Virus genome (UHGV): UHGV-1351772 | Source: a virus | Strand: one strand, 5' to 3' | DNA length: 64,000 bases | Shown: positions 32,755-53,575 of the stretch, piece after piece | Layout of the letters: each line of letters opens with the position of its first letter | Position numbering within the stretch: the stretch's first letter is position 1 | The notes under the pieces: generated by a model | The model's database searches: none | What the model was told of the DNA's origin: nothing | Seen by the model: the letters and a program-made list of their open reading frames with translations, nothing else | Program-made: the position numbers and the translations under genes

Positions 32755-33210
32755 TCAGTACAAACACGATGTCAAGTATTGGTTGTACGAATCGAGTAGT
32801 GTCTGACGGTCGGAGCGGTAATTCCACAACAAATTATTGAGTTTACGCGATAGGTCACGGCTAATCTCCTGGGGCGTTAAAGAGCTTTCGTCAAGAGATA
32901 AGCGTTCAGGTACAACATGTAACTTCGGTAACTCATAACGCTCACAAAGTGGAGCCAGCATTGGTGGGCTCCAGCCACGTTTAACGGCTTGTTGGTTTAA
33001 ATTTCGGGTGTAGACATAAACGTAGTAAGCATAGGTGTTGACATCCGCAACATACTCACGCATTGCGTTATTGTCAATTTTCCAATTCACCATTATTGGT
33101 GGTGTAGGAGGAAGTTCCAGTGGCCTATAAGCTGGACGTTTAACTTCGTCGCCGTAGCTATTACTCACCAACCCCACGAACACCATCATGATGAATAACA
33201 GCATTTTCAT
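32755..33210 (-). CDS. Secreted proline-rich protein (signal peptide, no lipobox)
   Basis: Start at ATG 33210 (AAGGAG SD): MKMLLFIMMVFVGLVSNSYG then PAYRPLELPPTPP. Confidence 0.6.
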   Translation of the reverse strand: MKMLLFIMMVFVGLVSNSYGDEVKRPAYRPLELPPTPPIMVNWKIDNNAMREYVADVNTYAYYVYVYTRNLNQQAVKRGWSPPMLAPLCERYELPKLHVVPERLSLDESSLTPQEISRDLSRKLNNLLWNYRSDRQTLLDSYNQYLTSCLY

Positions 33211-33213
33211 CAA

Positions 33214-33717
33214 TCACTCCTTAGAAGACGTTAACGTCTTTATGATCTCCTGTCGAAAACTGTTCGCATTTAAATTGCCAACAGGTCTCGCCGAAGCCTC
33301 TTTACGTTGTTCTGGTGTTGAAGCTGGATTAACAGGAGTTTCTGGTTTTGTCGAAGACAGATCCTTCGCCGTACCGCTCGCTTTCGATGAATTAAACGTG
33401 CTTTCATATGGCGGTTTCTGGCCGAGGCAAACGAAGAGCCTGTCGTATAACTTCCCATTATCTTCTTTTAGTTTATCTCGATCTTGTTTCATCTCTTGGT
33501 AAGACTGCGACATATACGTGTCATGAGACTGCACTGCAACGAGCGCGTGAAACTGTTGTACATAGGCGTAGGAGACGAAGCCAGAATACGACAACAAGAT
33601 CGTGATGATTAAAGTCATTATCTTGCTTGCTCTTGATACGTTTTCTCCTTCTCCTGGTTTAAATGCTTCCATTAACATCTGAAGGAAGAACGGAAGCACT
33701 TTAAAAAATGAACCCAT
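33214..33717 (-). CDS. Membrane protein with N-terminal TM helix and periplasmic coiled-coil-like domain (i-spanin-like architecture)
   Basis: 167 aa; TM IMTLIITILLSYSGFVSYAYV; then QEMKQDRDKLKEDNGKLYDRL; GAGGTGA SD. Confidence 0.55.
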   Translation of the reverse strand: MGSFFKVLPFFLQMLMEAFKPGEGENVSRASKIMTLIITILLSYSGFVSYAYVQQFHALVAVQSHDTYMSQSYQEMKQDRDKLKEDNGKLYDRLFVCLGQKPPYESTFNSSKASGTAKDLSSTKPETPVNPASTPEQRKEASARPVGNLNANSFRQEIIKTLTSSKE

Positions 33718-37382: not shown

Positions 37383-37862
37383 TTAAAATAATGGCAAGTT
37401 ACGCCATTGTCCTACCGAGTAAAAAGCTTTTGGATGTTTACGGATATACGCTTTCGCTTCTTCTGGCAACCAACGGTCACCTACCAGTTTTTGTTGTGCA
37501 ACAATTACTGCCATCAACAAATAAGGGTTTTTCGCACCGGGAAACTTTGCATTGGTTTCTAGCGCAATATCCAACATTGACGACCAGCCCAGTAATTTAT
37601 GCTGCGCCGGTAAACGTTCTTCAATATACATCAGCCAGTTCATGATTTGTTTAGGTTTATACGGACAGGTATAATTCGCCCAACACACCATGACGAACTT
37701 AATAGCCTTCGCAATCACCCATACAGGGACAGTCACGAAAAGGCAGAAAATAGCCAACTGCGATGCGGGCGCTTCGACAAAAGTAATCGCCACAAGGACC
37801 ATAAACAATTCAAGTACCACAAACCAAAAACGCGTTGGATAACGCCAAATGAACTTTATCAT
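37383..37862 (-). CDS. Integral membrane protein, 159 aa
   Basis: Multiple hydrophobic helices (FWFVVLELFMVLVAITFV, LAIFCLFVTVPVWVIAKAIKFVMVCWA); AGGAG SD. Confidence 0.6.
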   Translation of the reverse strand: MIKFIWRYPTRFWFVVLELFMVLVAITFVEAPASQLAIFCLFVTVPVWVIAKAIKFVMVCWANYTCPYKPKQIMNWLMYIEERLPAQHKLLGWSSMLDIALETNAKFPGAKNPYLLMAVIVAQQKLVGDRWLPEEAKAYIRKHPKAFYSVGQWRNLPLF

Positions 37863-37930: not shown

Positions 37931-38438
37931 AGAAGAACGGCTGATTTGGAATGACAGCGTACTCTAAAATGAACATGTGTTCTGGGGCGTCTTCTTTACG
38001 CCAGACCTTGTGTGTCGACACAAGTTTTTCCAGAATCGTTAGAAAACTACGCTGGCAGTATGTGTTTTCACCAAGCAGTAGATTTTGAAGTTCTACAGTA
38101 GCGTCCATATACGCCTGTTTAAAGACTAAATTACGGTTATACTGCCCGGTAAAATTCCAAAGCAAGACTTTCCCTTCTTCGGTTTCTTTTACCGTTGGTC
38201 GTAAACCACAAATCCACAGTAAGGCAAGGTTGACGTTCCAGTCAAACTCTAAACCTTCTTCTTCGTCATCACCGAATGCTGTGGGTAAAGCATCGTAAAA
38301 TTCGTGTTTCTCTGCGAATTCTTCATCCGACTTAATCTCGTCTTCGATACTGCTTCGGACGATACTGTAAACGTCTTTCGCGGTCAATTGTGCGGCTTTT
38401 GTAATGCCTTTATACCAATCGGTTACTACGATGCTCAA
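37929..38438 (-). CDS. Hypothetical acidic protein, 169 aa (TTG start)
   Basis: TTG 38438 with GAGGAG SD; TTGA overlap with upstream stop; no ATG until aa ~122. Confidence 0.5.
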   Translation of the reverse strand: MSIVVTDWYKGITKAAQLTAKDVYSIVRSSIEDEIKSDEEFAEKHEFYDALPTAFGDDEEEGLEFDWNVNLALLWICGLRPTVKETEEGKVLLWNFTGQYNRNLVFKQAYMDATVELQNLLLGENTYCQRSFLTILEKLVSTHKVWRKEDAPEHMFILEYAVIPNQPFF

Positions 38439-39133
38439 AGGGTAACTCCTCTATTGATTGGAAAACTCGTGTTTATCGTATCCCAAATTCTACTAACTTC
38501 CGCCAGTTGAATCTGACGTGGTGTTTTCTTCGCAAACGCAAGCTGACGTGGGGCCGAGCCCACAACAACAGGCACATCGATTTTCGCGCTATAGAACGCG
38601 GCGTCTTTCATAAAGCCTGCCATTTCTCGTTGTGCTGCTCGAGATTTGCTTTTGATTCGCGTGTGAGCGCCACTTTCACCCCAGTGGTAAGCTAACGCAA
38701 TTTCAGCCATGGTGGGCTTGCGTTTGAGTCGTTTGGTTAACCCCTTCTCAAGATGTTTAACATACGCGGCAGCCAGCAAAACAGCATTACGCGGATTATA
38801 TAAATCGGCGTTCTGACTAAGACCTAATTCTTTTCCATAAAGCCTTAGCAGATTACGCTTGGTACTTGGAAGCATCTGTACCAGGCTGTGTGCTCGTGAG
38901 CTTTTGTTGTAAGCCTTGGGATCAAAACGTGATTCGCGATAAATCAGCGTAATCATCAGCTTAGGATCAACGCCTTGCTTTCGTGAGATTTCCACAATTA
39001 ACGGGCTGACTTTTTCGAACCGATGTTGGATTTGTGCAAACTCACGCTGATGCTTAGAATGTGGCGTTGACGTTGACGCCTGTGCGTTAAACGCGAAAAG
39101 TGTTACCAGTAAAAGAAAGAAGATACGAAACAT
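38435..39133 (-). CDS. Secreted lytic transglycosylase (signal peptide plus SLT domain)
   Basis: Start moved to ATG 39133 (GGAG SD): MFRIFFLLLVTLFAFNAQA signal peptide; ESRFDPKAYNKSSRAHSLVQMLPST ... YNPRNAVLLAAAYVKHL. Confidence 0.6.
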   Translation of the reverse strand: MFRIFFLLLVTLFAFNAQASTSTPHSKHQREFAQIQHRFEKVSPLIVEISRKQGVDPKLMITLIYRESRFDPKAYNKSSRAHSLVQMLPSTKRNLLRLYGKELGLSQNADLYNPRNAVLLAAAYVKHLEKGLTKRLKRKPTMAEIALAYHWGESGAHTRIKSKSRAAQREMAGFMKDAAFYSAKIDVPVVVGSAPRQLAFAKKTPRQIQLAEVSRIWDTINTSFPINRGVTL

Positions 39134-39225
39134 TTTGTTTCTCCAGTTGGATTTATACATTTCCGTATTCCGTAAGACGAAATGACGGCGCGGACAGCTA
39201 ATACTCCTTTGTTGTGTGCCCTAAT

Positions 39226-39235
39226 GATAATATCT
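39226..39235. promoter_or_regulatory. GATAATATCT element
   Basis: Third exact copy of the 10-mer, upstream of the secreted lytic transglycosylase gene. Confidence 0.3.
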
Positions 39236-39731
39236 ATTTAAAAGAGTTTGGAATTAATGACTCTGCTTCTTGATACAACTTATCAGGTAAGTATAACGTG
39301 TAGCGTTGCCTCCTCGGTTCAAGTTTTTTGTAAAGCCACAAAAAGATTTCTTGTCTTTCCCAGGAATCTAACCACCCGTTTGCCATTCCAAGTGGAGGGA
39401 TAGCAACGCTGGTATCCAGATCCTCAGCACAATCCGCCAGTGCGGTAATGCCCGCAGTAACATAAGAAACCTGGGACTTTAAGCGCCAATGGGTTTTCGT
39501 GGGGAGCAAGATACACTTTTCGTCAGAGTAAACGTAAACGTTTCCAATCTTAATTTCGTTTTCACGACACCGCTTACGATAATTCTGGTAAAGGTTGGGG
39601 TAGCGTTCACGACACGCGAGTGCAATGCCGCGACCCATCGCTCCTACGCAGTTAATGGTAACGACTTTATAGTCTTCGGGCGCATTAAAAAGATCGTTAT
39701 CAATTTCAGATTCTTTACGTACCGTTAACAT
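39234..39731 (-). CDS. Macro domain protein, TARG1/OARD1-like
   Basis: Start moved to ATG 39731 (MLTVRKE...). NDLF...VVTINCVGAMGRGIALACRERYP and VAIPPLGMANGWLDSWERQEIF resemble by eye TARG1 GDLF..[25 protein letters not shown] and LSMPRIGCGLDRLQWENV. Confidence 0.55.
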   Translation of the reverse strand: MLTVRKESEIDNDLFNAPEDYKVVTINCVGAMGRGIALACRERYPNLYQNYRKRCRENEIKIGNVYVYSDEKCILLPTKTHWRLKSQVSYVTAGITALADCAEDLDTSVAIPPLGMANGWLDSWERQEIFLWLYKKLEPRRQRYTLYLPDKLYQEAESLIPNSFK

Positions 39732-39818
39732 AACGAAACGCCCGGAGTTGATGTGTAGTATTAAAACGTGTACCGCCGATTGATAGCTCGACAAGTATAG
39801 CGATATATGTTTTACCCA

Positions 39819-41226: not shown

Positions 41227-41406
41227 CTAATTCCGCCATTCGCATTCGCGTTGACGCCAAATTGAACCCCACGATAGTTTAATCAGATAAGATGAAACTA
41301 CCCATAAAATCATCACCACACAAAACATGACATAAAGAACCGCTAGAATGGACATGAAGCCAAACCCTGCCGCATCCACAATATGACGGAACCAATCAGT
41401 TTGCAT
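41227..41406 (-). CDS. Small membrane peptide, 59 aa
   Basis: ATG 41406 (AAGGAG upstream); MQTDWFRHIVDAAGFGFMSILAVLYVMFCVVMILWVVSSYLIK...; overlaps stop of ATPase gene. Confidence 0.5.
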   Translation of the reverse strand: MQTDWFRHIVDAAGFGFMSILAVLYVMFCVVMILWVVSSYLIKLSWGSIWRQRECEWRN

Positions 41407-43900
41407 AAACAATTTTTACTCCTTCGTTATACACCGCAGGCAATGTCACCCCTTCCGGTTCGATGACACAGTACGATGCTTCATTAAGTTTAGAATGAAC
41501 CTCGGCTTCGTGGGAGACTACCAACAGTTGAGAAAATTCTCCCGAGTTTGCTAACGTTTTAATAAAGCCGACCAGGTTGTTACGGTGCTCCTCATCCATG
41601 CCTTCCGAAGGCTCATCCAAAAGCAATGGAAACTGATGCAACTTCAGCGCTTTGTACGCAGTCAGCCTGAACATCAGATTAAATATCGCACGCTGCGCCT
41701 TAGACCCTTTACGCACGTCAGGAACAGGCTCAGGATGCGTTTTTAGCTGGACAGGAAAAGTATAATCCAAATCGCCGTCAGTGAGGTCACAAGGCATAAC
41801 GCGCATGGGGTACGTCCAGACCTGTTCGATATAACGCGTCATTAACTCTGTGATTCTAACGATAGCGTTGTAAAAATACTTTCTAAGTACACCCTTTTCT
41901 GGAGAGAAGGCTTGAATCATCAGTTTGTTATTGAACTGCTGGGCTTGTAAGTCAGCAAGTTCGCGTTCCAAACTGTTGAGCTGATTCAATTCATTTTCCA
42001 TCTGACGATAACGTTCGCGTGCGGTTGTAAAAGCATCCAGCTTCCCTTCTCGTGCACGTAAGAGTTCCTCGACGACCGTATTTGTCAACGTAACCTTAAC
42101 ATCACTCTCTAACCGTTCGAATAACGCACTGAAATCATCTACAGCACGTTTAACATTCACCAGATAGGTAAGTGTCGTGTTAGCCAGTTCGTGCTCTCTA
42201 CGACGCATTGAGAGCATTTCTGTGGCTTTACCTAATCGTGACTGTTGGAAAGCGATTTTCTGTTGTAAAGCACCATCGACGTTACCAACGGCCGCCACGG
42301 CATCCTGCCATTCTTTTTCCGCCTTCACTAACCGTTGTCGGGTTTCATGGTACTCAATAGCAGAGTACAACTCGCTGTCAAACGCTGCGCATAGACTCCC
42401 GAACTGTTCACGTGATTCTGTGAAAACGTTACGTTCTTGCAAACGCTTAAAGAACATGCTCAATACCGGGTCCTTTGAATACGTCAGTACAATCTCACGA
42501 ACCTGCCGCATATAAGTTACATCAGATTCTAATTCAACACGATCGCGTAATAAGGTCTCTAACTGCGTTTGCAGTTCCGTGCGCTGCTGTTGTTGTCCGC
42601 GAATCGAAGACTCAAGTTCAGGTAAAGAACGCGTAACACCAGGCCGAAACTTAAACCGACACTGCGGGCAATCCACTTCCGCTGTTTCTAAGTAGTGATT
42701 ACGTTCGTGATTTAAATTCTGTAAAACGTTCTCCACTCGCTGGAGTCTATCCCGCAACCCTGCGGTTTTTTGATCCATCACCAGAAGCCGTTCTTCCAAA
42801 ACATTGAGTTTTTCAGTTGAATGAATTGCGTCCAGTGTTGTTCCTAACCGTTGCCCCCAGACACGCGCATCGGTAGCCGCACGAAGTTGGTCTAAATTGA
42901 CGTTGTCGTTAAATAGACCCGGAAAGAGATGCTCGGTGTCCCATTTGGTAAGTAACTCACGTAAACGCGCCAATGTATTCTTGAGACCTTCGTGATTCCG
43001 CATCAGGTAGTCTTGTCGTGTCGATTCATCCATCAATAACGACAAGTCTTTATTCAACATCGATACCTCTGTTTCAGTAGACACGACAGCTTCGCGGGCC
43101 GTCGCTTCGTTTTGTCGCGCGGCCAGTATCTGTTCATCAGTAGGCAGTCCACCACGATGTTGTAATATTGCGTCGATGGTTGGGCCCAAGCTGTTTAATA
43201 ACGCTTGGATTGTTTCGATGGTGACGGCACGATTTAATCCTGGCAACTGTTCGATTTCTCGGTTCAGTTCACGTAAATCCGATTCCAAACCTTTTAATCT
43301 CGTCGCCAACTGCTGCCGTTCTTCCTCGTTCTCAATAACACGCGTCCGCAATTCGGCGATTTTACGGCTGGTGATTTCAATACCCCCATTTAAGGCAGTA
43401 AGGTTTTTACGTAAACGTTGATAAAACCCTAACGCGTAGGTGAGGTCAGAGGTACTTAAACGGTAAAACCACTTACGACGCAGTTCCGTTCCTGCATCCG
43501 TTAAAAGCACTTCTCCGTTCAGTAGTTCTTTAATCTCTTTTGTAATGCCTGTGATTTCTTCAACACGGGAGTTGTAGACTTTCGCATTACCTTGCTCGAC
43601 GATCTTTGCCCCCGTGGTCAAGTTCTCAATATCACAAACCAGTGAGTTCCCTTTACGGGCAACTTTGAATCGATAGCGTTGATCACCAACTAAACAGTAG
43701 TTCGTGTAAGAACCGCCGTCCCTGAATTCGGTTTTGGCCGGTGCTAAGGGTAAGAATACAGACAGTAGACTGGTTTTCCCGCAACCGTTTCCACCCAGGA
43801 TAATTGTTGTTGGGGACTGGATAGTGAAATCGAATGTTTCAATTTCATGTAACCCCATCCCCGTAAAACCTTTGAGTATAATGCGTTCAACTTTTAGCAT
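41396..43900 (-). CDS. SbcC/Rad50-like SMC-family ATPase with coiled coil and CxxC zinc hook
   Basis: Start moved to ATG 43900 (GGAGGTG SD). Walker A GGNGCGKTSLL, long coiled coil, hook EVDCPQCRF, signature-like SKAQR, Walker B LLLDEP, H-loop VVSHEAE. Confidence 0.75.
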   Translation of the reverse strand: MLKVERIILKGFTGMGLHEIETFDFTIQSPTTIILGGNGCGKTSLLSVFLPLAPAKTEFRDGGSYTNYCLVGDQRYRFKVARKGNSLVCDIENLTTGAKIVEQGNAKVYNSRVEEITGITKEIKELLNGEVLLTDAGTELRRKWFYRLSTSDLTYALGFYQRLRKNLTALNGGIEITSRKIAELRTRVIENEEERQQLATRLKGLESDLRELNREIEQLPGLNRAVTIETIQALLNSLGPTIDAILQHRGGLPTDEQILAARQNEATAREAVVSTETEVSMLNKDLSLLMDESTRQDYLMRNHEGLKNTLARLRELLTKWDTEHLFPGLFNDNVNLDQLRAATDARVWGQRLGTTLDAIHSTEKLNVLEERLLVMDQKTAGLRDRLQRVENVLQNLNHERNHYLETAEVDCPQCRFKFRPGVTRSLPELESSIRGQQQQRTELQTQLETLLRDRVELESDVTYMRQVREIVLTYSKDPVLSMFFKRLQERNVFTESREQFGSLCAAFDSELYSAIEYHETRQRLVKAEKEWQDAVAAVGNVDGALQQKIAFQQSRLGKATEMLSMRRREHELANTTLTYLVNVKRAVDDFSALFERLESDVKVTLTNTVVEELLRAREGKLDAFTTARERYRQMENELNQLNSLERELADLQAQQFNNKLMIQAFSPEKGVLRKYFYNAIVRITELMTRYIEQVWTYPMRVMPCDLTDGDLDYTFPVQLKTHPEPVPDVRKGSKAQRAIFNLMFRLTAYKALKLHQFPLLLDEPSEGMDEEHRNNLVGFIKTLANSGEFSQLLVVSHEAEVHSKLNEASYCVIEPEGVTLPAVYNEGVKIVYAN

Positions 43901-45144: not shown

Positions 45145-45177
45145 GTCGTAAAAAGGACCCCGGACGTACCGGGGTCA
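45145..45177 (-). terminator. Hairpin terminator (minus strand)
   Basis: GACCCCGG-ACGTA-CCGGGGTC hairpin, short U-run. Confidence 0.5.
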
Positions 45178-45186
45178 AGACTACAC

Positions 45187-45576
45187 TCAATGATCTAATT
45201 CAATAGCACCAGCCATCTTGCCCCGTTCTTCGATAACAATCAGATAACGGTCGCGAGATTTGCTTTTAGCGAGAGTTAAGACAACAGTAGGGTCGCATGT
45301 TTTCGTGGTGATAGGAAGAACCTCTCTTTCGACGGAATCGAGCAGAAAGTAATAACCTGCGGGACACATTGTGCCACCGTCAGCTTTTACCAGAATATAG
45401 CGCCCGTCTGCGCCGACTTCTTGGCAGATTGTTTCACCGACTTCGCAAACTTCAAACCCCGGAGGATTGTACTGATAATCGGTATTGTTGTTTGGGGTTA
45501 GCAGTAAATCGTTAACTTGAGTAGATGCTGCTACACTCAGGGAGAAGAAGAATGCTAAAACGCAGACGAGACGCAT
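45187..45576 (-). CDS. Small secreted Cys-containing protein 1 (signal peptide)
   Basis: MRLVCVLAFFFSLSVAAS signal; CEVGETICQEVGADGRYILVKADGGTMC; AAGGAG SD. Confidence 0.65.
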   Translation of the reverse strand: MRLVCVLAFFFSLSVAASTQVNDLLLTPNNNTDYQYNPPGFEVCEVGETICQEVGADGRYILVKADGGTMCPAGYYFLLDSVEREVLPITTKTCDPTVVLTLAKSKSRDRYLIVIEERGKMAGAIELDH

Positions 45577-45586
45577 GAGTTACTCC

Positions 45587-45997
45587 TTAAATTTTAAGTT
45601 TATCCATAGCTACAACGATAGGTTTTTCCGAAGTGTCTAATATCCCTACCATTGGCACACCATCTACGACTTCGAAGAATGGTTTGTTATTACCAGAGCA
45701 TAGACGTTTGTCGTTGTATTCGAGACGTTGGGCCTTCCACGTTTCGAGGTTGAGTACAGACATTGGGCTGTCGTAGCACCAGGCACCACCTTGCTCAACG
45801 ATGAATACGTATCTGCTACCTTTGTATTTAAACAGACTCTTCGCCTGACAGTACAACCCGTCAATTTCCGTACAATAGAAATCATCGGTGCTATTGACGT
45901 ACTTAATATTGTCTGGCAACTGTATTGTCTTTGCTGTAGCGTTGACAGAGAACAGAACAGCCATTGCAATGAGAAGAGTATTAATGATAGTTTTCAT
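45587..45997 (-). CDS. Small secreted Cys-containing protein 2 (paralog of protein 1)
   Basis: MKTIINTLLIAMAVLFSVNATA signal; CTEIDGLYCQAKSLFKYKGSRYVFIVEQGGAWC. Confidence 0.65.
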   Translation of the reverse strand: MKTIINTLLIAMAVLFSVNATAKTIQLPDNIKYVNSTDDFYCTEIDGLYCQAKSLFKYKGSRYVFIVEQGGAWCYDSPMSVLNLETWKAQRLEYNDKRLCSGNNKPFFEVVDGVPMVGILDTSEKPIVVAMDKLKI

Positions 45998-46008
45998 GAT
46001 AAAAGTCC

Positions 46009-46494
46009 TTAGTATTTAGATTGTTCTACGTACTTCTTAACCAGGTAAGCGAATTCGGCAACACCGATATCACCGAACCAAATCAGGTAACCGGGGTCGA
46101 TGTTGTAGTAATAACCGACGAGTTTCTTGGTGTGTGGGTTGTATAGCGTTACGATGTATTCCCAACCACAAGCGTTAGCTTTACAACCACCGCTTTCAAT
46201 CCAGATTTTGTTGTTGATGTTTACCGGATACATGTTACCGCCAGGGCCATCCATGTAACCTTTAGAGCCGAACATACCATCCAGTCCCACAGGGTCTAGT
46301 GTTTTATCAACAACGGCTTTAAACGACTTATCGGTATCGTACAAGTCGTTGATGTTTGGGCACGCATTTGGCTGACCTTCCCAAGCGTTTCCATCACAGG
46401 TAAGCAATTCGTCTGCGGAGGCCGCATCTACAGTTGGTGTGACACCGATAAACAAGAAAACCAGAAAGAACATCAGTGCATGTAAACGTTTCAT
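46009..46494 (-). CDS. Small secreted Cys-containing protein 3
   Basis: MKRLHALMFFLVFLFIGVTPTVDAAS signal; six Cys in mature part; AAAGGAG SD. Confidence 0.65.
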   Translation of the reverse strand: MKRLHALMFFLVFLFIGVTPTVDAASADELLTCDGNAWEGQPNACPNINDLYDTDKSFKAVVDKTLDPVGLDGMFGSKGYMDGPGGNMYPVNINNKIWIESGGCKANACGWEYIVTLYNPHTKKLVGYYYNIDPGYLIWFGDIGVAEFAYLVKKYVEQSKY

Positions 46495-46512
46495 TGTAAC
46501 TACTCCTTTAGA

Positions 46513-46905
46513 TTATTCAGCAGGGCGATTCAAGGTAACACGTCCGATTAATTCGGCGTTGTGAAAGAAGTCCACAGCGGTATAGTTACCAACGGATAGC
46601 GGATGGATACTAACTGACATTACTTTTGGTTGTTCGCAGGCGATATCCGTCAGACGTTGGTAGACTTGCGCACGGGTGTCAGCAATGAGTAACCCCGTAC
46701 ACGCTTCACCACGCACTAAACGATAAACTTGCAGTTTACCGAAACTGCGCATTAACGTAGGCGTCTCATCCGGGTTGATAATCGGTGAGTCAGGAGCCGG
46801 TTCGTAATAGCGGACATCCGAATCACCGAAAGCATAAGTGCCAGTAATTCCGACCGCACAGAAAATAATGATGGTATAAAGTATAGTTCTGATATTCATT
46901 TTCAC
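46513..46905 (-). CDS. Small secreted protein 4
   Basis: M(K)MNIRTILYTIIIFCAVGITGTYA signal; start GTG 46905 or ATG 46899. Confidence 0.55.
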   Translation of the reverse strand: MKMNIRTILYTIIIFCAVGITGTYAFGDSDVRYYEPAPDSPIINPDETPTLMRSFGKLQVYRLVRGEACTGLLIADTRAQVYQRLTDIACEQPKVMSVSIHPLSVGNYTAVDFFHNAELIGRVTLNRPAE

Positions 46906-46927
46906 GCACTCTAAAAAAGATTAATAG

Positions 46928-47389
46928 TTATTTGTTAGGACGGGTGTGTCCACAGTTCTGGAAGAAAGTTTCAGACAGACGTTCGCCTTCTACGGTAAAG
47001 TTAGCGGTGTCGTTACCATTGATACTCACACTGAAAGTTTTGGCATTACCGATAGCATTAACGAAAGCAACCCAAGCGTGTTCTGCTTTGTCACTACCGT
47101 CCACGGTAGGGATGTTATAGGTCTTGCCGTTTACGACAATATCCAACGTGTTATCTTCCGCGTTAGTTGCACCTACGGGTTCACCGTAATACCAAACCAT
47201 GTGACCGTAAAATTTGCGATTCGCAGTTTCTGTGTCACAGTTGATAGACAGTCCGTTTCCGGCGGTGTCTTCAATTTCGTAAACTGCCTGGCCAGGGTTT
47301 TGTATTTGTTCCCAGCTGTTGATAGCGGCGTGTGCGCTATTGAGGCCGAAAGTTAAAATGGTTATTAAGAAAGTGATAAAGGTTTTCAT
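46928..47389 (-). CDS. Small secreted protein 5
   Basis: MKTFITFLITILTFGLNSAHA signal; AAGGAG SD. Confidence 0.65.
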   Translation of the reverse strand: MKTFITFLITILTFGLNSAHAAINSWEQIQNPGQAVYEIEDTAGNGLSINCDTETANRKFYGHMVWYYGEPVGATNAEDNTLDIVVNGKTYNIPTVDGSDKAEHAWVAFVNAIGNAKTFSVSINGNDTANFTVEGERLSETFFQNCGHTRPNK

Positions 47390-47435
47390 TGAAATGCTCC
47401 TTCGGGTTATGGGGAAATTCCCACAAATTATGAAA

Positions 47436-47807
47436 TTAAATAACTGTGTTGGGTAATGCTTTAATCTGTGTATAACTATCTCCGATACCTCTTATCATTT
47501 CCAGACGCTCTTCTGTAGAAAGGCTTTGGTTAATGTCTTTGTCAAGATTGAACAGTGTCAAGAGTTTTGCAATTGCAACCGTCAAGTTGTCGGACAGCTC
47601 GTTGTTTTTACGCCATTCTTCGTTACGGAAAATAGAGATAAGGTCTTTCGCCTGGCCTTCAGCGTGCGGTTTGGCTAACTGCGCGTCACGCTGTTCGATA
47701 AGGTATGCTTCGTTAGTAAGTAAACGTTTCAGGTTTTCTGGGTTAGTGGCAGCGCGAGTAACGATCATTAATACAACAAACGGGTCTTTAAATAATTCGT
47801 TTTTCAT
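47436..47807 (-). CDS. Hypothetical protein, 123 aa
   Basis: ATG 47807 with AGGAG SD; conserved hairpin plus 21-mer module upstream. Confidence 0.6.
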   Translation of the reverse strand: MKNELFKDPFVVLMIVTRAATNPENLKRLLTNEAYLIEQRDAQLAKPHAEGQAKDLISIFRNEEWRKNNELSDNLTVAIAKLLTLFNLDKDINQSLSTEERLEMIRGIGDSYTQIKALPNTVI

Positions 47808-47860
47808 CTTTAGTTCTCCTAAAATGGTTTTCGTTAAGTGAGAGCTTTTGTACTCTCACC

Positions 47861-47881
47861 TAAGTAATATATATCTGAAAT
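47861..47881. promoter_or_regulatory. Conserved 21-mer TAAGTAATATATATCTGAAAT preceded by hairpin (47838-47859)
   Basis: 20 of 21 nt identical to 52147-52167; contains GTAATATATA; lies 54 nt upstream of minus gene start 47807. Confidence 0.45.
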
Positions 47882-47896
47882 TATTTTTAATAATAA

Positions 47897-47932
47897 CGAA
47901 CAAAAAATAAAAGGTGGGGGTAAACCCCCACC
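47897..47932 (-). terminator. Rho-independent terminator (minus strand)
   Basis: GGTGGGGG-TAAA-CCCCCACC hairpin with U-run on minus strand. Confidence 0.7.
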
Positions 47933-47936
47933 GATG

Positions 47937-48515
47937 TTATACATCGAACCGGTACTGCCGGGAGTTAATGAGGAACTCGGTATTCAGCTCAATCCATTCG
48001 AGTAAATCGCCCAACGGTAATCGGTTTGGGTTTTCTAACTCAATAGACGCTACCGGATAAGAGTTTACTAATTCCGTAATTGCCTCAATACCCTCTTGCG
48101 TTCCATCGTCTTCTAAGGTGATTGTAAACGGCATATCGGTACGATCCGCATTAGGATTGTACAAACTGACTTTCGTTGCTTGGACAAACGCAGTCAGGTC
48201 GTCACGTATAATGCGTGTATCAGGCGCTAGAACTACCCAGAGATGTTGTCCAGGCTGGAGTTTACGTTTTGCGTAGTTTAAGAACGGATTAGCCGGTAAG
48301 CTTTCCAAACCACTGCAAATGTTCCGTAAATGAATACCTCGTGGGTCTTTATAGTCCACGCTGAAGATTCCTACCGGTTCCTTCGCTGCCTGTTTTATCA
48401 GAAAGACCAATACCGTGTCCGCTCTTTCTGGTAAGGAAAGCTCTATTCCCTCAAGCTCCCCATCGACGAGGTTTTCCAACCAAACGTCTTTTCGCATTTC
48501 TATTAATCGGTACAC
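47937..48515 (-). CDS. Hypothetical protein, 192 aa
   Basis: GTG 48515 with GAGGTGG SD. Confidence 0.55.
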   Translation of the reverse strand: MYRLIEMRKDVWLENLVDGELEGIELSLPERADTVLVFLIKQAAKEPVGIFSVDYKDPRGIHLRNICSGLESLPANPFLNYAKRKLQPGQHLWVVLAPDTRIIRDDLTAFVQATKVSLYNPNADRTDMPFTITLEDDGTQEGIEAITELVNSYPVASIELENPNRLPLGDLLEWIELNTEFLINSRQYRFDV

Positions 48516-53297: not shown

Positions 53298-53365
53298 CTA
53301 TCTTATGCTTCGGTTGTAACACACGTCGGTCTTAGACCACCTTCCTTTTGAAATGGAGAGCTGTT

Positions 53366-53575
53366 ATGTCTATTAAAGAGTTCTCTTCTGCTGAGCATAT
53401 TCCAGAAGAGTTTAAGAAAATCGGTAACGTTAGCGCTTTCGGCGACACCGTTGATCATGTAACGGGTAAGCTGGCTGCTGAAGCTGAAAAAATTGGCGGC
53501 GACGCATTCAAAGTTATCGGTATTTCCGGCAACAACAAACTGCACGGTAACGCAATTGTCTACAAAAAAGACTAA
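53366..53575 (+). CDS. DUF1471 (YdgH/BhsA/McbA-family) domain protein without signal peptide, 69 aa
   Basis: Start at ATG 53366 (GGAGAG SD). KKIGNVSAFGDTVDHVTGKLAAEAEKIGGDAFKVIGISGNNKLHGNAIVYK closely parallels E. coli BhsA QKVGTISANAGTNLGSLEEQLAQKADEMGAKSFRITSVTGPNTLHGTAVIYK (from memory). Confidence 0.7.
   Translation: MSIKEFSSAEHIPEEFKKIGNVSAFGDTVDHVTGKLAAEAEKIGGDAFKVIGISGNNKLHGNAIVYKKD

Follow-up and report, generated by a model that had tools for sequence, protein, structure and literature searches.

What use a virulent enterobacterial jumbo phage would have for a run of small secreted proteins is the question raised by five consecutive minus-strand open reading frames (ORFs) at positions 45187-47389 of a 64,000-nucleotide (nt) stretch of the virus genome UHGV-1351772 (hereafter the window). 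The ORFs, named w1 to w5 from low to high window coordinate, were present as a preliminary description of this DNA had reported them (Table 1). Judged from their sequences, they form an operon of exported-type, constrained and non-structural genes which is located outside a lysis cassette, includes one Ivy-like member and has taken part in gene flow with bacterial genomic islands. We tentatively propose that SPN3US-like jumbo phages carry the array as an accessory operon, conserved yet modular in make-up, and that its soluble, Sec-exported and disulfide-stabilised periplasmic proteins may serve as binders or inhibitors of peptidoglycan-cleaving enzymes, a reading considered possible though short of probable.

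Export signals and conservation of the array

Each of the five N-termini consisted of one or two basic residues, an uncharged hydrophobic core of 10-18 residues (mean Kyte-Doolittle value 2.5-3.3) and a small-x-small site, and neither a lipobox nor a later transmembrane-like segment was found in any of the five. Signal peptides were called by a crude sequence rule applied to the 69 non-overlapping ORFs of the window. The rule was strongly passed by seven of these, five of which were the consecutive w1-w5 (chance approximately 1e-4). The n-h-c pattern seen in each protein was kept in every orthologue examined (five phage genera), in agreement with the predicted signal peptide, AXA-type cleavage site and missing lipobox that the preliminary description had assigned to all five. 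Mature parts of w1 to w5 carried 4, 4, 4, 2 and 2 cysteines, respectively, so the earlier range of two to six has to be corrected to two or four, never six. All of these cysteines were conserved in the orthologues, which fits folding of the predicted mature proteins in an oxidising compartment.

Neighbouring genes of the array were spaced by 11-22 nt, with a Shine-Dalgarno sequence before most of them. The ratio of non-synonymous to synonymous substitutions (dN/dS), calculated pairwise against two related phage contigs, was 0.03-0.19 for all five genes, indicating purifying selection and therefore real, constrained genes. The array had been described as lying between terminators. Strong intrinsic terminators do flank the unit, but it also contains a sixth, non-secreted ORF, which matched PHROG 27024 (function unknown; E = 6.5e-11). 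L010 and L026, two contigs of related phages, lack this ORF. In a sigma-70 promoter scan, sites were fewer than in shuffled sequences.

Megablast of the array region against 50,697 phage records returned matches of 43-58 nt only, and therefore no close isolate was present among these records. On sequence grounds the window phage is a new relative of the SPN3US/phiEaH2-type jumbo phages. The SPN3US-like phages are counted among the nucleus-forming relatives of phiKZ, so the premise of cytoplasmic DNA replication from which the preliminary description had argued is a loose one. With w1 as the query, tblastn retrieved 53 records, 44-50% identical to it, of SPN3US-like jumbo phages that infect Salmonella, Erwinia, Escherichia and Proteus. 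The SPN3US orthologues were gp180 for w4 (49% identity; PHROG 9424, E = 1.6e-40), gp182 for w2 (30% identity; PHROG 8968, E = 2.8e-33) and gp183 for w1 (47% identity; PHROG 5248, E = 3.6e-31, with a second match to PHROG 8968, E = 0.009). In SPN3US the order is gp180-gp181-gp182-gp183, followed by gp184, gp185 and the SbcC-like gp186, and the same gene order was found in phiEaH2, Asesino, SPAsTU, pEa_SNUABM_29, Huxley and Kwan. Orthology and the position before gp184-gp185-SbcC place w4, w2 and w1 in this gp180/gp182/gp183 cassette, the members of which are all annotated as hypothetical in SPN3US, phiEaH2, Asesino, Huxley and Kwan.

The synteny, which was kept in Seoulvirus, Erskinevirus, Machinavirus and Wellingtonvirus, and the relatives of the array in bacterial genomic islands indicated that it is not peculiar to the window phage. 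The number of exported genes per array was three in Machinavirus, four in Seoulvirus, Erskinevirus and Wellingtonvirus, five in the window lineage and six in the metagenomic relative L010, where the sixth is a second YfjT paralogue. By sequence comparison, w4, w2 and w1 are thus the clade-wide core and two slots are variable: in the window lineage the Ivy-like w3 replaces gp181, and one YfjT-like gene, w5, is added (two in L010). Two further genes were noted in Erwinia phage Kwan (L025, 8083-8880): gp203, at the end of the array, is an extra and very divergent exported four-cysteine protein, and gp204 is a non-secreted 126-amino-acid (aa) protein with a ParB/Srx-like 'DGHHR' motif. The proteins identified by mass spectrometry in SPN3US particles go from gp173 straight to gp193 and include none of gp180-183 (PMC5105663, Table S4), indicating that these are not virion proteins and bearing out the non-structural nature of the array.

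Table 1. Array genes, their terminators and other features of the window. The arrow marks the predicted cleavage site.
Feature	Coordinates	Strand	Size	Description	Predicted cleavage
w1	45187-45576	-	129 aa	Predicted exported gp183-like protein, paralogue of w2; 4 conserved mature Cys	VAA/AAS↓T
w2	45587-45997	-	136 aa	Predicted exported gp182-like all-beta protein; 4 conserved Cys	ATA↓K
w3	46009-46494	-	161 aa	Predicted exported, divergent Ivy-like protein; Cys33-Cys45 and loop Cys104-K-A-N-A-Cys109	VDA↓A
w4	46513-46905	-	130 aa from GTG	Predicted exported gp180-like protein; 2 conserved Cys; probable start ATG at 46899 (128 aa), as in orthologues	TYA↓F
w5	46928-47389	-	153 aa	Predicted exported YfjT-family protein; signal peptide approximately residues 1-21; 2 conserved Cys	AHA↓A
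Sixth ORF	47436-47807	-	123 aa	No signal peptide; head of array transcription unit, variable insert
Terminator closing operon	45156-45176	-		Intrinsic; 8-bp stem with 7 GC pairs, then T-run
Terminator of upstream gene	47913-47932	-		Intrinsic; 8-bp stem with 7 GC pairs, then T-run; 5' boundary of array unit
SLT gene	38435-39160	-	241 aa	Candidate endolysin
Multi-transmembrane protein	37383-37862	-	159 aa	Near SLT gene; possible holin
Macro-domain protein	39234-39794	-		Just upstream of SLT gene
Single-transmembrane protein	41227-41412	-	61 aa	Right after SbcC
N-terminal transmembrane protein	33214-33717	-	167 aa	Charged, coiled-coil-like region
Signal-peptide protein	32755-33213	-	152 aa	Strong signal peptide, no lipobox Cys
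BhsA-like ORF	53348-53575	+	75 aa	YdgH/BhsA-like

The Ivy-like, YfjT-family and four-cysteine proteins

The w3 protein occupies the slot held by gp181 in other genera and is unrelated to gp181. It had no match in the 50,697 phage records, and in the other genera examined the slot contained gp181 or was empty. Three independent lines, including family models and profile comparison, supported a relationship of w3 to Ivy (PF08816, NF007443; PDB 1GPQ/1XS0/1UUZ), a periplasmic inhibitor of C-type lysozyme (PMC2267010). The NCBIfam model NF007443 matched w3 with E = 1.3e-3 and 18.6 bits (cut-off 180) and its E. coli homologue with E = 3.9e-4 and 20.3 bits; the homologue also matched PF08816 (E = 7.7e-3, 16.8 bits, cut-off 21), and all of these matches covered the same segment. 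Comparison of the w3-family profile with mature K-12 Ivy gave a score of 28.2 over 81 columns, vs. a mean of 10.9 (standard deviation 2.3, maximum 21.6) for 55 Ivy shuffles (z = 7.5). This alignment puts the w3 loop C104-K-A-N-A-C109-G on the C-K-P-H-D-C-G of K-12 Ivy, with loop architecture, spacing, the Lys and the following Gly conserved and the two loop cysteines invariant across 13 homologues. The predicted w3 structure was alpha/beta, with the antiparallel beta-sheet flanked by helices of the Ivy fold. Identity between Ivy and w3 was approximately 19-23%, and w3, unlike Ivy, has an extra N-terminal Cys pair. The loops read CKPHDC in Ivy, CKANAC in w3 and CKAHAC in E. coli island homologues such as Ec_160, in which the His is retained. 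Whereas Ivy is encoded at the chromosomal ivy locus, w3 and its homologues are found in a virulent jumbo phage and in mobile islands. On this evidence w3 is Ivy-like in fold and probable ancestry, short of a validated Ivy family member.

The w5 protein is, by sequence, a member of the YfjT family. It matched YfjT of the CP4-57 cryptic prophage of E. coli K-12 with a blastp E-value of 1.9e-14 over 133 aa and PHROG 3429 with E = 3.2e-7, and PF27224 (YfjT) is precomputed on w5 orthologues that are 79% and 88% identical to it. The Pfam scan of w5 was run with a copy of Pfam that lacks PF27224, as is evident from the fact that K-12 YfjT itself matches nothing in that copy. No match to w5 was found in the phage records searched. 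We know of no function for YfjT. The earlier statement that no recognisable motif explains any of the five proteins is superseded for w3 and w5.

For w1 and w2, described earlier as paralogues, the direct pairwise signal was weak (blastp E approximately 0.02-0.03), but the paralogy was confirmed through gp181, which bridges the two families with blastp E-values of 8e-7 to gp182 and 2.5e-4 to gp183; PHROG cross-matches link them too. A common pattern runs through gp181, gp182 and gp183 (F-x-C, C, beta-strand, G-G-x-x-C-P, then C), and by this measure w1, w2 and gp181 are one predicted all-beta, four-cysteine family. PDB sequence and profile searches yielded no relatives for w1/w2, w4 or w5, and none of w1, w2, w4 and w5 had a significant match in Pfam, NCBIfam or PADLOC. 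A PDB match to 'ThreeFoil' (E = 2.6e-4) was rejected as an artefact, summed over a designed three-fold repeat with no single stretch significant, and matches to AlgF, ATP-grasp and DUF5114 (E = 0.03-0.15) were judged to be noise. The profile check for lysozyme inhibitors proposed earlier was productive for the Ivy-like w3 alone. MliC/PliC (COG3895) gave neither a match to the family hidden Markov model nor an eight-stranded barrel fold match, and no Imm/Sp or toxin family matched any of the five proteins.

Very few proteins belong to the w4 family. When 1.84 billion representatives were searched exhaustively with phmmer, w4 matched only 12 cluster representatives, two of which, both long, were spurious matches to tetratricopeptide-repeat or low-complexity proteins, and w4 had no Pfam or PDB relative. 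When the w2 fold was compared with BFVD using Foldseek, a 126-aa Kwan protein was also returned (probability 0.98, template-modelling score (TM) 0.54). This protein is probably gp200, the w4 orthologue. Together with a cross-match of w4 to PHROG 5248 (E = 0.003), it provides a weak lead that w4 may share the w2 fold; in hhalign comparison of the w4 family with the w1/w2 family, the signal peptides alone aligned.

YfjS and YafY of K-12 are lipoproteins; the w1/w2 family has no lipobox. YfjS and the w1/gp183-like family have a local motif in common (C-x-G-G-x-Y-Y-x-L-V-D ... V-x-P ... C), and yfjS occupies an equivalent slot before yfjT. These features suggest a possible distant relationship between YfjS/YafY and the four-cysteine proteins of the phages, but the statistics are weak: hhalign comparison was not significant against shuffles (z = 2.9 and 1.7), and PF20494 (YfjS/YafY) matched none of the 13 w1/w2/gp181-family members and none of the seven w4-family members at E ≤ 5.

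Allele exchange with genomic islands

Integrative islands of the CP4-57 type were found to carry tandem homologues of w3 with w2, of gp181 and of YfjT, all in a single slot. On one side this slot is flanked either by a WYL/YfjR-like regulator or by YjcZ, patatin and a YfjP/dynamin-like GTPase, and on the other by DUF932, an antirestriction protein, RadC, DUF987 and CbeA/CbtA. Equivalent slots contained different tandem exported genes, namely Ec_180 and an Ivy-like gene or Ivy-like and gp182-like genes in E. coli, gp181-like and YfjT genes in Yersinia rohdei, and yfjS and yfjT in E. coli K-12. Ec_180 is a further exported protein of 180 aa, encoded upstream of the Ivy-like gene in E. coli islands. 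Many strains have it in truncated form or as a fusion with the Ivy-like ORF, so that genes of 223-227 aa are called, and gp182-like pseudogenes, likewise truncated, were present next to insertion-sequence elements (these variants were noted at L004, 7098-7640; L018, 5316-5567; L017, 5308-5985).

The pair of Ivy-like and gp182-like genes was collinear at the DNA level between phage and E. coli island, the intergenic junction included. The window was 72% identical to island L028 over 958 nt, equal to its identity with phage L026, and phage L026 was 79% identical to island L018 at the DNA level. The Ivy-like protein of L026 was 86% identical to an island allele and 62% to w3, while the neighbours of this gene in L026 were 76-92% identical to those of the window. 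Likewise, w2 was 79% identical to an island protein vs. approximately 30% to gp182 of other phage genera, and the gp181-like protein of the Yersinia island was 70% identical to phiEaH2 gp105, compared with 36-45% identity between phage genera. Comparison of window positions 45187-48515 with L010 and L026 placed a 192-aa gene, w5 and w4 closest to L026 (dS approximately 0.45-0.55) and w3 and w2 closest to L010 (dS 0.28-0.58), indicating a recombination breakpoint between w4 and w3. These identities point to at least two exchanges of alleles between phages and islands. Because of the allele swaps and the breakpoint, the array appears as a modular, recombining cassette which belongs to a pool shared with bacterial mobile islands.

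Possible roles of the array

The preliminary suggestion of an envelope-targeted module was strengthened by the exported-type, non-lipoprotein sequences, the position outside a lysis cassette, the non-virion orthologues and the Ivy-like member, whereas its specific function is a matter of proposal. According to the reading that we favour, w1-w5 would be exported and would bind or inhibit envelope enzymes in the periplasm during infection, with w3 blocking a peptidoglycan-cleaving enzyme by means of its disulfide-clamped beta-hairpin loop, as Ivy does. Superinfecting phages would most likely supply the target, in the form of a tail-associated lysozyme or lytic transglycosylase, and the infected cell would be shielded from lysis from without and closed to superinfection, much as with Spackle. 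The island homologues would serve the resident element in the same way, which would explain why such genes are retained by a virulent phage and by resident islands alike. Spackle, Imm and RI are known small exported phage proteins. The best functional analogue of the proposed mechanism is T4 Spackle, which after cleavage of its signal inhibits the gp5 tail lysozyme in the periplasm and contains a disulfide bond (PMC7677548). Like the array proteins it is small and phage-encoded and has a cleaved export signal and a disulfide. It is, however, a helical bundle unrelated to the beta-rich array proteins in sequence and fold: w2 is predicted to be all-beta and w3 alpha/beta and Ivy-like, and no PHROG or Pfam match to Spackle was found.

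Several observations weigh against enzyme inhibition. Every match to the Ivy family models was below the curated threshold, and the confidence of the w3 model was medium (predicted local distance difference test, pLDDT, 62). The histidine of the Ivy loop plugs the lysozyme active site. In w3 this position is Asn107, and the Pro and Asp of the Ivy CKPHDC are both Ala, so that canonical lysozyme inhibition may have been lost. Four of the five array proteins are without a functional homologue, and the all-beta w2 fold resembles generic propeller blades only, with no specific solved-structure match. Finally, the cargo adjoining the island homologues is of phage-defence type (dynamin-like GTPase, patatin, antirestriction and toxin-antitoxin genes, and abpAB and rnlAB in K-12), which favours the proposed reading, but as an argument from gene neighbourhood it amounts to guilt by association.

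Alternatively, the array could regulate lysis, either by restraining the SLT endolysin of the phage or host lytic transglycosylases until lysis, or by acting as a periplasmic antiholin or superinfection sensor in the manner of T4 RI, itself a small secreted antiholin. The SLT gene, on the same strand and approximately 6 kb downstream, encodes a protein with an SLT lytic-transglycosylase domain (PF01464, E = 2e-14; PHROG 4067, 'transglycosylase') and an N-terminus resembling a signal or signal-anchor-release segment (MFRIFFLLLVTLFAFNAQA↓ST), features of a probable exported endolysin, and it is located next to the 159-aa multi-transmembrane protein. This speaks for lysis control, as an exported muralytic enzyme would need periplasmic restraint. 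Ivy is also reported to inhibit lytic transglycosylase (Clarke et al. 2010), which counts for the enzyme-inhibition reading as well. However, two terminators, SbcC and more than ten genes separate the array from the SLT gene, in line with the earlier statement that the array is not part of a lysis cassette. No lipobox, second transmembrane segment or coiled coil of the kind expected of spanins was found in w1-w5. In addition, w3 is missing from the other genera examined, the elements that carry the island homologues have no lysis genes, and nothing similar is encoded in the lysis cassette characterised for phiKZ (PMC12894885). Control of lysis is consequently regarded as rather unlikely.

Other genes in this part of the window were recorded as side observations. 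The Macro-domain protein matched PF01661 (E = 3e-6), and the 61-aa single-transmembrane protein matched SPN3US gp187 (PMC5105663). The 167-aa and 152-aa proteins, encoded by adjacent genes and matching PHROGs of unknown function (8719, 8165), could be an atypical spanin-like pair. On the plus strand, the 75-aa ORF corresponded to a YdgH/BhsA-like (PF07338) gene of L010, the Kwan counterpart of which is annotated as 'multiple stress resistance protein BhsA'; its product seems to be without the signal peptide of bacterial BhsA.

A second alternative is that the proteins mask receptors or remodel the envelope, binding outer-membrane or periplasmic receptor parts so that phages can neither re-adsorb nor enter, much as T5 Llp, Cor or Imm do, and without enzyme inhibition. 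Their predicted periplasmic location would suit this, as would a family composition that varies fast and in modular fashion between lineages, typical of host-range and exclusion genes. Yet the known receptor blockers Llp and Cor are lipoproteins, while none of the five array proteins has a lipobox, and scans of Pfam, PHROG, NCBIfam and PADLOC libraries found no similarity to Llp/Cor/Imm-type families; masking is thus distinctly unlikely. Counter-defence or host takeover, with host periplasmic proteases, envelope-stress sensors or membrane-associated defence being neutralised, would be compatible with export signals, with small folds of a binder-like kind and with sequences that lack enzymatic motifs, but close homologues in bacterial islands beside defence-type genes fit defence or exclusion better than anti-defence, making it very unlikely; PADLOC models, which matched none of the five proteins at E ≤ 1, speak neither way. 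That the genes are chance ORFs or encode virion structural proteins, for which nothing speaks beyond small size and missing annotation, is refuted within the limits of the sequence data and of the SPN3US proteome, given the low dN/dS, the orthologues across five genera and the absence of gp180-183 from the particle.

If the proposed inhibition of peptidoglycan-cleaving enzymes is extended to the islands, the array and its island homologues (Ivy-like, four-cysteine beta family and YfjT) could constitute a shared, actively exchanged pool of periplasmic entry-blockers, used for superinfection exclusion by phages and for host defence by islands, which would neutralise the peptidoglycan-cleaving tail enzymes of incoming phages. 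We regard this extension as doubtful; if true, the pool would represent a class of periplasmic anti-phage proteins not recognised before, and the Ivy fold would be seen in use by a phage for the first time.

A full-text literature search on SPN3US returned nothing relevant on an exported module, and the cassette, its Ivy-like member and the exchange with CP4-57-type islands appear not to have been described before. Little is known about how jumbo phages of the nucleus-forming type act on the envelope, and the array represents a conserved, predicted periplasm-directed and non-structural module across SPN3US-like phages. The gene flow with islands provides a hypothesis on the function of 'y-ome' genes, namely those for YfjT, the unannotated Ivy-like protein and the 136-aa island proteins. 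Should the array proteins prevent phage entry, they would help to explain how phages compete with one another and why phage therapy fails in some cases.

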